A DNA stretch of 4,335 nt, from IMG/VR virus record IMGVR_UViG_2711768058_000007, positions 1 through 4,335 of that record; one strand, 5' to 3'. The position numbers and the translations under genes were made by a program. The notes beneath the pieces are model-generated. The model saw only the letters and a program-made list of their open reading frames with translations. It was not told the DNA's origin and did no database searches. Positions 2,448 to 3,595 of this stretch are shown one piece after another (positions within the stretch are counted from its first letter, which is position 1; each line of letters begins with the position of its first letter). This stretch comes from a virus. Taxonomy: Duplodnaviria > Heunggongvirae > Uroviricota > Caudoviricetes.

Positions 2448-2981
2448 TTATCTGTCGATTCCCCAGCACGCCAGAGCGCTCTCCTGGTCACGACGGGATA
2501 CCTGACCATAACAGTTATTTGAGCGAATACGGCAGTCTCTGCCACCGTCCTTAATCCACCAGCGAATCGCTTCGCAGGCACCTTTTCGATCTCCTGCATT
2601 AATTCGTTTATAAAACGTCGACGGGAAACACTTACCTGGGCCAATGTTGTAAGGACAGAATGACGCAATACCCGCTTTCTGGGGTTCAGTCAGTGGCACT
2701 TTGATGTTTTTCGCCACCCATGCCAGCGCCTTATCACGTTCAATGGCGTTAACCTGGTCGCATTTTTCCTTCGACAACTTCATGCCCGGGAGGACAGGCT
2801 TACCATCCACCCGGGTGGCTCCACGGCAGATGGTCCAGATACCCGCACCATCACGGTATGCCGTGGTGTGGTTACCTTCCTTTTCATCCAGAAACTGGTC
2901 GAGAATGTCAGGCGCAGGCGCACCTGCGGCAATCAGCGCCAGAACGGCAGCCGACAGGCCGTATCTGATTTTTGCGTTCAT
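2448..2981 (-). CDS. R: SAR endolysin (T4-lysozyme-like, GH24 muramidase with N-terminal signal-arrest-release domain)
   Basis: 177 aa. N-terminus MNAKIRYGLSAAVLALIAAGAPAP is an Ala/Gly-rich weakly hydrophobic SAR-type segment. E-x8-D-x5-T spacing in EGNHTTAYRDGAGIWT matches the T4 lysozyme Glu/Asp/Thr triad. Closely resembles E. coli prophage lysozymes of the Qin RrrQ type as I recall them. Confidence 0.92.
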   Translation of the reverse strand: MNAKIRYGLSAAVLALIAAGAPAPDILDQFLDEKEGNHTTAYRDGAGIWTICRGATRVDGKPVLPGMKLSKEKCDQVNAIERDKALAWVAKNIKVPLTEPQKAGIASFCPYNIGPGKCFPSTFYKRINAGDRKGACEAIRWWIKDGGRDCRIRSNNCYGQVSRRDQESALACWGIDR

Positions 2982-3031
2982 GGATATTTATCAGGGTTTA
3001 TCGATTTCAAATCCCTGGATATGTTAAGTCT

Positions 3032-3376
3032 TCAGGCCAGCGGTGGAGTCTTCAGAGAACCAGTAATTATTCCCGGTAGTTTTCCTCTGTAGGTTATCAA
3101 CACATCCTGCGCCTCTAAAATTACGGGGCGCTTTTCCGGCAACGGTTCGTTCCCTTCACATAACCCGGCAGCAACATCCATGAAAAACTGCTTCGCCTGC
3201 TTTTTCGCCTCAGCTTCGTAAAACTCCAGCGTGGCACCTTCAGTACGGTCAAGACTAATCGCCACATTTGGCAACAACAGTGACGTATACCCACCCGTTT
3301 CCAGCGCCACAGTAACAGTAATCTTATCCGGGTAATTATTTATCCCTTTAACAACCAGTTCGTATTGTTTATTCAT
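3032..3376 (-). CDS. Conserved phage protein between holin and endolysin (YdfR-like, DUF1327-type by position and size)
   Basis: 114 aa, soluble, no TM segment. GGGGAGAG lies 6 nt upstream of the ATG, which is 3 nt after the holin stop. Assignment to the YdfR family is by synteny with the essQ-ydfR-rrrQ arrangement in E. coli K-12 Qin as I recall it, not by verified sequence identity. Confidence 0.65.
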   Translation of the reverse strand: MNKQYELVVKGINNYPDKITVTVALETGGYTSLLLPNVAISLDRTEGATLEFYEAEAKKQAKQFFMDVAAGLCEGNEPLPEKRPVILEAQDVLITYRGKLPGIITGSLKTPPLA

Positions 3377-3379
3377 CGT

Positions 3380-3595
3380 CTACTCTCCCCGCGCCGCCTT
3401 ACGCCGGTCTTCTTTAATTTTGAAATACAGGTTCGTCAGATATGTCAGCAGACCAAACAGCAGACTCCCCAGCACGCCTATTGCCGCCCACTGAGACGGG
3501 GAAACCCTGTCCAGCAGCTGCAGGAACCAGTAGCCCGTCCCCACCGCTGACGTGGTGTATGACACACCTGTTGTGATTTTTTCCATCTGGTACAT
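3380..3595 (-). CDS. S: Class II pinholin, phage 21 S-like, with dual-start motif
   Basis: [71 protein letters not shown] matches phage 21 S21 (two TM segments, charged C-terminal tail). Met1 and Met4 give the expected antiholin/holin dual start. GGGAGACGGGG lies upstream. Confidence 0.92.

Follow-up and report, generated by a model that had tools for sequence, protein, structure and literature searches.

A YdfR/DUF1327 family gene between holin and lysozyme in the lysis cassette of a Stx-phage-like lambdoid prophage

We analyzed a 4,335-nucleotide (nt) stretch of DNA from a virus of the class Caudoviricetes (IMG/VR record IMGVR_UViG_2711768058_000007, positions 1 to 4,335; hereafter, the window), with emphasis on a 114-amino-acid (aa) open reading frame (ORF) located between a holin gene and a lysozyme gene. 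A preliminary description, made from the letters alone, had taken the two flanking genes for a pinholin and a signal-anchor-release (SAR) endolysin, had guessed that the interposed soluble protein belongs to DUF1327, and had suggested for it a lysis-related role that was not characterised. All genes of interest, and all features given below, are on the minus strand, and a check of the ORFs confirmed the coordinates of that description. The window is 99.9% identical to a prophage of Escherichia coli SHP24 (L001; the other loci compared are likewise designated by L numbers), in which the Q antiterminator, tRNA genes and a gene for a SASA-family esterase are followed by the region of the window and then by the terminase genes. 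Judging from sequence, the window is the late region of a Shiga toxin (Stx)-phage-like lambdoid prophage. Both its lysis cassette and the DUF1327/YdfR family are already known and annotated.

The holin-lysozyme junction

The holin gene (3595..3380, 71 aa) encodes an S21-type class II holin (pinholin family), which matches PF04971, 'Bacteriophage P21 holin S' (E 7e-33), and the PHROG holin families phrog_9876 and phrog_20. The first of its two hydrophobic segments (residues ~9-29) is weakly hydrophobic and rich in Gly, Ser and Thr; the second (residues ~36-57) is strongly hydrophobic, contains a GxxxSxxxG motif, and includes the hydropathy maximum (1.99 at residues 37-53). The protein is 100% identical to the holins of many Stx2a phages. 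It starts with MYQMEK (3584-3595), i.e., with two in-frame starts, M1 and M4, as in the S21 dual-start motif. The three extra residues of the long form contain no Lys, in contrast to the MKSM form of L002, L003 and L005. For a holin of the MYQ type, the charge difference on which antiholin function usually depends may not be in play. In the SHP24 prophage (L001 4850-5064), the holin is annotated as frameshifted, whereas the holin of the window is intact.

The lysozyme gene (R, 2981..2448, 177 aa) belongs to PF00959 (E 5.6e-25), and its product matches the solved lysozyme of phage 21 (3hde/3hdf) and RrrD (4zpu). Residues E35, D44 and T50 are aligned with the same catalytic positions of 3hde, and with those of RrrD, and make up the Glu-8aa-Asp-5aa-Thr triad. 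The N-terminus (MNAKIRYGLSAAVLALIAAGAPAPD) consists of a basic tip and a weakly hydrophobic stretch; the Gly/Ala-rich segment at residues 7-24 (YGLSAAVLALIAAGAPAP, nt 2910-2963) has Gly, Ala or Ser at 10 of 18 positions, reaches a hydropathy of 1.77 at residues 11-27, and has a Pro after its sole AxA-like site. At the level of sequence comparison, the assignment of the pair to an S21-type pinholin and a SAR-type lysozyme holds, as the preliminary description had it.

The interposed gene (3376..3032) matches PF07041 (DUF1327) over residues 1-112 with an E of 3.1e-44 and 149.6 bits (cutoff 25), far beyond chance, and the profile search thus bears out the guess of the family; an identical protein in RefSeq is named 'YdfR family protein'. 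The type member of the family is YdfR of E. coli K-12 (b1555, UniProt P76160), which is encoded in the cryptic prophage Qin. The two proteins share the family and the predicted core, are 45% identical over residues 1-78, and are found in the same gene order (essQ-ydfR-rrrQ-rzpQ/rzoQ in K-12). However, the segment between strand 2 and strand 3 is replaced and the C-terminal parts are unrelated; the K-12 protein has 103 aa and its gene overlaps rrrQ, whereas the gene of the window has a 38-aa tail followed by a 50-nt spacer. The window protein has no hydrophobic segment (the best 17-residue Kyte-Doolittle mean is 1.22) and a isoelectric point (pI) of 5.1, which agrees with its description as soluble; it is predicted to be neither a membrane protein nor exported.

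The protein consists of two parts. The core domain (residues 1-76, 3149..3376) is acidic (pI 4.7) and is delimited by the PF07041 match, the alignment, the AlphaFold2 models and the per-segment ratio of nonsynonymous to synonymous substitution rates (dN/dS). The five AlphaFold2 models computed from a diverse alignment are in agreement (mean predicted local distance difference test score, pLDDT, of 60-71), and the core (pLDDT 73-93) is predicted to form three strands (residues 5-14, 18-27 and 37-43) and one helix (50-76). The C-terminal tail (residues 77-114 and the stop codon, 3032..3148) is predicted to be disordered (pLDDT 44-60). Fold searches with the model revealed no significant structural relative, a sequence search of the PDB gave chance matches only (E >= 0.1), no match was found in NCBIfam, and a PADLOC search with the window protein and two remote DUF1327 homologues was likewise negative at E <= 0.1.

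The gene is tightly coupled to the holin gene, as noted in the preliminary description: the holin stop codon TAG (3382..3380) is followed by ACG (a 3-nt gap) and by the ATG of the ORF (3376..3374), and the last codons of the holin contain a good, well-spaced Shine-Dalgarno sequence, GGGGAGAG (3390..3383). We compared the start contexts across loci. In cassettes that lack DUF1327, the same GGGGAGAG at the end of the holin gene precedes the start of the lysozyme gene instead; in every DUF1327-bearing cassette compared, it serves DUF1327, so that each DUF1327 copy compared is preceded by a strong ribosome-binding site. In the latter cassettes, a conserved ...ATAAATATC(C/T)-ATG, with no Shine-Dalgarno sequence, leads into the lysozyme gene; in the window, the 50-nt spacer (2982..3031) ends with ...CTGATAAATATCC-ATG. 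The DUF1327 gene thus takes over the ribosome-binding site that is embedded in the end of the holin gene. A hairpin in the spacer is no better than those of shuffled sequence (fold z-score 0.35), and an Rfam scan of the window detected no RNA element. A consensus scan of the minus strand around 3032-3400 found no promoter-like or terminator-like site flanking the DUF1327 gene; since the gene has no such signals of its own, it is expected to be expressed as part of the late operon.

Distribution and constraint of the DUF1327 gene

In the phage collection, an S21-type holin was found in 436 records, and a DUF1327 relative in only 101 of them; i.e., the gene is missing from ~77% (about three quarters) of records with the same type of holin. 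It is rare in Stx2a phages (2/124) and frequent in Stx1a (41/47) and Stx2c (15/17) phages. For example, phage Stx2a_F723 (L018) has a holin that is 100% identical to that of the window, and its endolysin gene follows after 4 nt. Homology between the window and the F723 cassette (blastn, compared with the L018 annotation) breaks off precisely at the holin stop codon and is found again from 36 nt inside the lysozyme gene; thus, the variable unit (2946..3379) comprises the DUF1327 gene, the 50-nt spacer and the first 12 codons of the lysozyme. Matches to DUF1327 are present in 3159 of 5426 complete E. coli genomes (58%), in up to 8 places per genome, and the order holin-DUF1327-lysozyme was observed in 8/8 genome loci. 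Cassettes that have the same holin and lysozyme are therefore polymorphic for the presence of the DUF1327 gene.

A profile search of 1.84 billion representative proteins returned only 90 matches, and in a species-level genome scan the long form was found only in Escherichia and Shigella, apart from two metagenome bins in which mis-binning is probable. Stand-alone homologues of 72-76 aa were among the proteins retrieved by the profile search; they are aligned without gaps to residues 1-72, and Y5, Y53 and E54 are invariant in them; one of them matches the window protein with a pairwise E of 6e-12. These short homologues are encoded by prophages of Sodalis, Serratia, Yersinia and Pantoea, and most of them are located outside lysis cassettes. 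The core domain was found at the gpM/gpL junction (L010, L013-L015), between the tail assembly chaperone and tape measure genes (L016/L017), at the gpI/gpJ junction (L030-L034), just after Rz (L019, L046), and ahead of two unrelated holins in Pantoea (L027-L029). Within Escherichia, DUF1327 is also found after a holin of PF16080 (L020-L023). A function that depends on the pinholin or on the SAR lysozyme cannot be the function of the DUF1327 family. We also observed that the allele of L020-L023 (4001-4517 and equivalents) is split by a frameshift into overlapping ORFs of 72 aa and 107 aa, and that the split allele recurs in 10 contigs from different samples, behind the PF16080 and not the S21-type holin.

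The constraint on the gene was estimated by comparison of the window with two diverged copies (L002 and L003). The dN/dS is 0.42 for the DUF1327 gene (0.30 for L002 versus L003), compared to 0.07-0.11 for the holin and 0.03-0.05 for the lysozyme. The gene is thus under weak constraint, and its dN/dS exceeds that of the lysis genes about 10-fold. Many copies are truncated, duplicated, fused or frameshifted. The tail has a dN/dS of 0.55-0.76 and is weakly constrained, and its apparent conservation is explained by recent sharing, as seen from the low dS (0.15-0.27); it is confined to the Escherichia lysis-cassette subfamily and missing from the members of 72-76 aa. Segments of the C-terminal part were also seen in other combinations: P0154, P0006, P0112 and P0122 differ in their arrangement of the tail (EKRPIILEAQ.VWITYKGKLPGRITGSLKTPP) and a coiled coil of ~60 aa, which occur as core and tail, as core, tail and coiled coil, or as coiled coil and tail without the core; in P0154, the same tail is joined to a different N-terminal part. 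This suggests that the tail and the coiled coil are independent modules.

The relaxed constraint on the tail and the many broken copies could indicate that the ORF is a chance or decayed sequence that is kept only by linkage and has no function. We consider this most improbable: no gaps are needed to align the core across Escherichia, Sodalis, Serratia, Yersinia and Pantoea, its dN/dS is below 1, a strong ribosome-binding site precedes every copy, and YdfR of K-12 accumulates as a soluble protein (PMC13232886). Residues 24-41 of the core (between strand 2 and strand 3) are hypervariable, replaced outright between subtypes, and saturated with nonsynonymous change. Such a surface segment is expected in an arms race, and it could be assumed that this small, acidic late protein with a patchy distribution at module junctions is involved in anti-defence or superinfection exclusion, i.e., that it blocks a system of the host or of a competitor phage that is unrelated to RNase E; in one screen, overexpression of ydfR raised the streptomycin minimal inhibitory concentration three-fold (PMC12924614), a hint at an effect on the host. 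We assign a low probability to this explanation. The protein matches no known defence or anti-defence model and has no structural relative, and late expression would be odd for a protein that counters defences acting at entry.

The preliminary description had inferred a lysis role from the conserved position of the gene inside the operon. In this case, the protein would be a lysis regulator or an endolysin helper that delays SAR release, chaperones the lysozyme before export, or tunes the timing of lysis. Dedicated endolysin helpers do exist, such as the Gp1 chaperone of mycobacteriophage Ms6 and the gp25 releasin of phage Mu, the latter being membrane-anchored; as small proteins encoded beside the endolysin gene, they are the closest precedent for a lysis role. 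The strict holin-DUF1327-lysozyme order in Escherichia and Shigella copies (also behind the PF16080 holin), the translational coupling of DUF1327 to the holin, the inclusion of the 5' end of the lysozyme gene in the mosaic unit, and the envelope-integrity phenotype of a ydfR mutant (discussed below) are all consistent with such a role. However, the position is kept only within the Escherichia and Shigella copies; most cassettes of the same holin type, including those of Stx2a phages with the identical holin allele, have no DUF1327 gene; and the remote homologues are found either among tail genes, well away from lysis genes, or in front of unrelated holins. A lysis regulator should be required for lysis, or modulate it, wherever its cognate holin and endolysin occur and is usually associated with the membrane or the periplasm, where control of the SAR lysozyme and the pinholin takes place; the DUF1327 gene is dispensed with in most such cassettes, and its product is predicted to be a cytoplasmic acidic protein without a membrane segment or a signal peptide. 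No sequence match to the known helpers was found, and the homologues located away from any endolysin also set the family apart from them. In addition, the dN/dS far exceeds that of the lysis genes, and overexpression of ydfR causes no growth defect.

The argument from position proves too much as well, for it would make a lysis gene of the antirepressor gene that is located between R and Rz in the window (2174..1479; KilAC/ANT domain, PF03374, E 8e-28; phrog_63). This gene is a second non-lysis passenger of the cassette, which tolerates insertions. Taken together, we consider a regulatory or helper role in lysis very unlikely; in general, it is quite probable that the DUF1327 protein is not a component of the lysis pathway.

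YdfR, RNase E and the convergent partner

A literature search on DUF1327, ydfR, the YdfR family and essQ/rrrQ found no study linking the gene to lysis, and to this extent the description of the protein as not characterised stands; it has to be amended with respect to binding partners. The only direct data come from a 2026 study in which proteins that bind the N-terminal half of RNase E were sought (PMC13232886); the screen picked up the first 72 codons of K-12 ydfR, exactly the conserved DUF1327 core. The fragment YdfR 1-72 gave a two-hybrid signal with RNase E 1-597 and a weaker one with RNase G. When Strep-tagged YdfR was purified, RNase E 1-598 eluted together with it, and the K-12 protein was also accompanied by RNA, seen as nucleic acid resistant to DNase (PMC13232886).

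Considering all these observations, we favor, with about even confidence, the following explanation: the 114-aa ORF is a YdfR/DUF1327 accessory gene in an otherwise standard lambdoid lysis cassette (pinholin, SAR lysozyme, Rz/Rz1) and not a working part of this cassette, and its product binds macromolecules, RNase E being the likeliest. Under this scenario, a DUF1327 module would have entered the holin/lysozyme junction in an Escherichia phage and would have spread by recombination through the conserved flanking genes; the position would be fixed because of descent and linkage, not because of function. The product would be cytoplasmic and acidic, with a domain of three strands and one helix, and would bind other macromolecules. 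In the Qin homologue of K-12, residues 1-72 suffice for the interaction; by analogy, the likeliest target would be RNase E, in its catalytic N-terminal half, as well as RNase G, perhaps with RNA taking part, and this contact would adjust RNA turnover late in infection. The copy in the window, which has no partner gene (see below), would be under relaxed selection. Conservation of RNase E binding in the window copy, being argued by analogy with a protein 45% identical to it, is possible but somewhat doubtful.

Several points weigh against this explanation. The RNase E data come from overexpression, one two-hybrid system and one co-elution, with no nuclease control for YdfR, and they refer to the K-12 protein only; furthermore, overexpression of ydfR changed few transcripts, in addition to the lack of a growth defect mentioned above (PMC13232886). 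The acidic core is unusual for an RNA binder, and the window protein is not only diverged from the tested YdfR to the extent given above (residues 1-78) but also has the segment between strands 2 and 3 replaced. All Escherichia and Shigella copies examined are in a lysis cassette and all of them, except for L046 (after Rz), directly follow the holin; the arrival of DUF1327 is always linked to a distinct 5' end of the lysozyme gene without a Shine-Dalgarno sequence, and the insertion may alter at least the expression of the lysozyme. Finally, the Keio deletion of ydfR was among the hits when mutants were screened for a leaky envelope (PMC3879167, supplement). Because ydfR is located between essQ and rrrQ, polarity on rrrQ is an equally good explanation of the latter result.

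Analysis of the remote homologues revealed a second gene. Next to most of the short DUF1327 copies, an ORF on the opposite strand is arranged tail-to-tail at a distance of 12-50 nt; its product is mostly of 86-101 aa (range 70-186). A mechanical count of antisense ORFs was set aside, as it was affected by chance ORFs antisense to the lysozyme gene, and called or annotated genes together with homology were used instead. The partner is also present beside some of the Escherichia lysis-cassette copies (L002, L003, L020-L023, and phage Evi, L025, where it is an annotated coding sequence for a protein of 98 aa). In total, pairs of DUF1327 and its partner were found at six late-operon junctions in prophages of Escherichia, Serratia, Yersinia and Pantoea (L025 3501-4040; L015 449-1001; L016 5001-5519; L027 4001-4542; L030 4001-4525; L035-L049); the Sodalis copy has no partner. 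Neither a partner nor a partner remnant was detected by tblastn in the window, including the 50-nt spacer.

The partners fall into at least three PHROG families. Family A (phrog_25324) is found at the gpM/gpL junction, at the Evi holin/lysozyme junction and ahead of the Pantoea holins, with identities of 57-75%, and co-occurs with DUF1327 in four contexts; a second family (phrog_10490) is found at the chaperone/tape-measure and gpI/gpJ junctions. A search of IMG/VR with the Evi partner yielded 14 loci at three kinds of junctions, and a convergent DUF1327 gene is present in 14/14. Comparison of the partner families with one another revealed no homology (hhalign probabilities below 1%, with shallow profiles); the partners have no above-threshold match in Pfam and no match in NCBIfam, and a PADLOC search with five of them gave only two sub-threshold matches (E 0.014 and 0.027). 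The Evi partner gene is followed by its own terminator-like hairpin, and a simple promoter scan detected no promoter for the partners. DUF1327 and its partner look like an undescribed mobile two-gene module.

This arrangement provides the main rival to an RNase E function, namely, that DUF1327 is the orphaned half of a two-gene module: it would regulate or neutralise the product or the transcript of the antisense partner, for example by switching off a lysogeny-expressed cargo when late transcription begins, and the copy in the window would be a decaying remnant without a current job. The partner is beside most of the copies of 72-76 aa and some Escherichia copies, a single partner family accompanies DUF1327 at four kinds of junctions, every locus found through the Evi partner has DUF1327, and the terminator-like hairpin of Evi, the relaxed constraint, and the frequent truncation and frameshifting of copies also agree with this possibility. 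Conversely, the existence of at least three mutually non-homologous partner families does not fit well with a single, specific antidote. Copies without a partner are very common, as seen from the fraction of complete E. coli genomes with matches and from the multiple places per genome, and they still have a dN/dS below 1. The absence of a detectable promoter in the simple scan and of PADLOC or Pfam matches for any partner is a further difficulty. We consider this rival unlikely.

The two ideas can be combined in a conjecture that we hold to be quite unlikely. DUF1327 would be the invariable component of a mobile module, so far undescribed, in the lambdoid prophages of Enterobacterales; the module would consist of a 72-aa gene on the late strand, arranged tail-to-tail with a variable antisense cargo gene of ~90-100 aa, and would be inserted at many late-operon junctions. 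Its protein would be a late-phase switch that disposes of or neutralises the transcript or the protein of the cargo, via RNase E/RNA contacts of the YdfR type, once lytic growth begins; the copy in the window would be a partnerless derivative.

Other genes of the cassette and known systems

The remaining genes of the window are consistent with a lambdoid late region. First in the order of transcription is a DUF1378 membrane peptide (4160..3978), followed by an acidic DUF826 protein (ORF 4054..3671; the coding sequence annotated in the nearest genome maps to ~4038..3670); this pair is directly upstream of the holin (3671-4160), and the same is observed in Stx phages. Downstream of the antirepressor gene and immediately upstream of Rz, there is a very hydrophobic ORF of 43 aa (1384..1253; phrog_4906, E 3e-24), which is predicted to encode a small membrane peptide inside the lysis cassette; in L021, its place is taken by an ORF of 45 aa. 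The Rz spanin (783..1241, 152 aa as annotated in RefSeq for the nearest genome, L001; PF03245, E 3e-48) contains the embedded gene of the Rz1 lipoprotein (1030..845; PF06085, E 2e-20). The last gene (459..118) encodes a lipoprotein with the lipobox LVMGC that is almost wholly a TonB C-terminal domain (PF03544, E 1e-14), at the position held by bor in related phages. The PHROGs label of this family, 'Rz-like spanin', looks like a mis-annotation, and the lipoprotein could interfere with TonB-dependent receptors.

The closest match to the cassette as a whole is that of phage 21 (S21, R21, Rz/Rz1), with which it shares the P21 holin family, a lysozyme aligned with R21 that has the triad and the SAR-like segment, and the spanins. 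It differs by the MYQ start of the long holin form and by two inserted passengers, DUF1327 between S and R and the antirepressor between R and Rz; in the Stx2a relatives examined, S and R are adjacent. The passengers invite comparison with the morons of lambdoid phages, for example bor and lom of lambda, which are present or absent at module junctions and dispensable for the flanking functions; bor is opposite to the late operon. Like morons, the DUF1327 gene is found at module junctions, in some phages only, where it separates genes that are contiguous in their relatives, and its antisense partners recall bor. Unlike a typical moron, which has its own promoter and terminator, the copy in the window showed neither in the consensus scan and uses the holin-embedded ribosome-binding site.

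For the proposed binding activity, there are precedents as well. The Srd protein of phage T4 binds the catalytic half of RNase E. Among host proteins, RapZ is comparable: K-12 YdfR behaves in the same way in two-hybrid and co-elution experiments with RNase E 1-597/598 (PMC13232886). In contrast, DUF1327 has no detected similarity of sequence or fold to RapZ or Srd, and the effect of YdfR overexpression on the transcriptome is minor.

These results call for caution when the function of a gene is inferred from its position. Passengers land in the lysis cassette of these phages, the antirepressor being another example. YdfR is one of the y-genes of K-12 with fragmentary data, and the comparison presented here points to RNase E/RNA, or to the antisense partner, rather than to lysis; the convergent module of DUF1327 and its partner is the most noteworthy by-product of the analysis. 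By moving the lysozyme gene away from the holin-embedded ribosome-binding site, the insertion of DUF1327 could change the lysozyme-to-holin ratio, and an altered ratio could shift the timing of lysis and toxin release between Stx1 and Stx2a phages.

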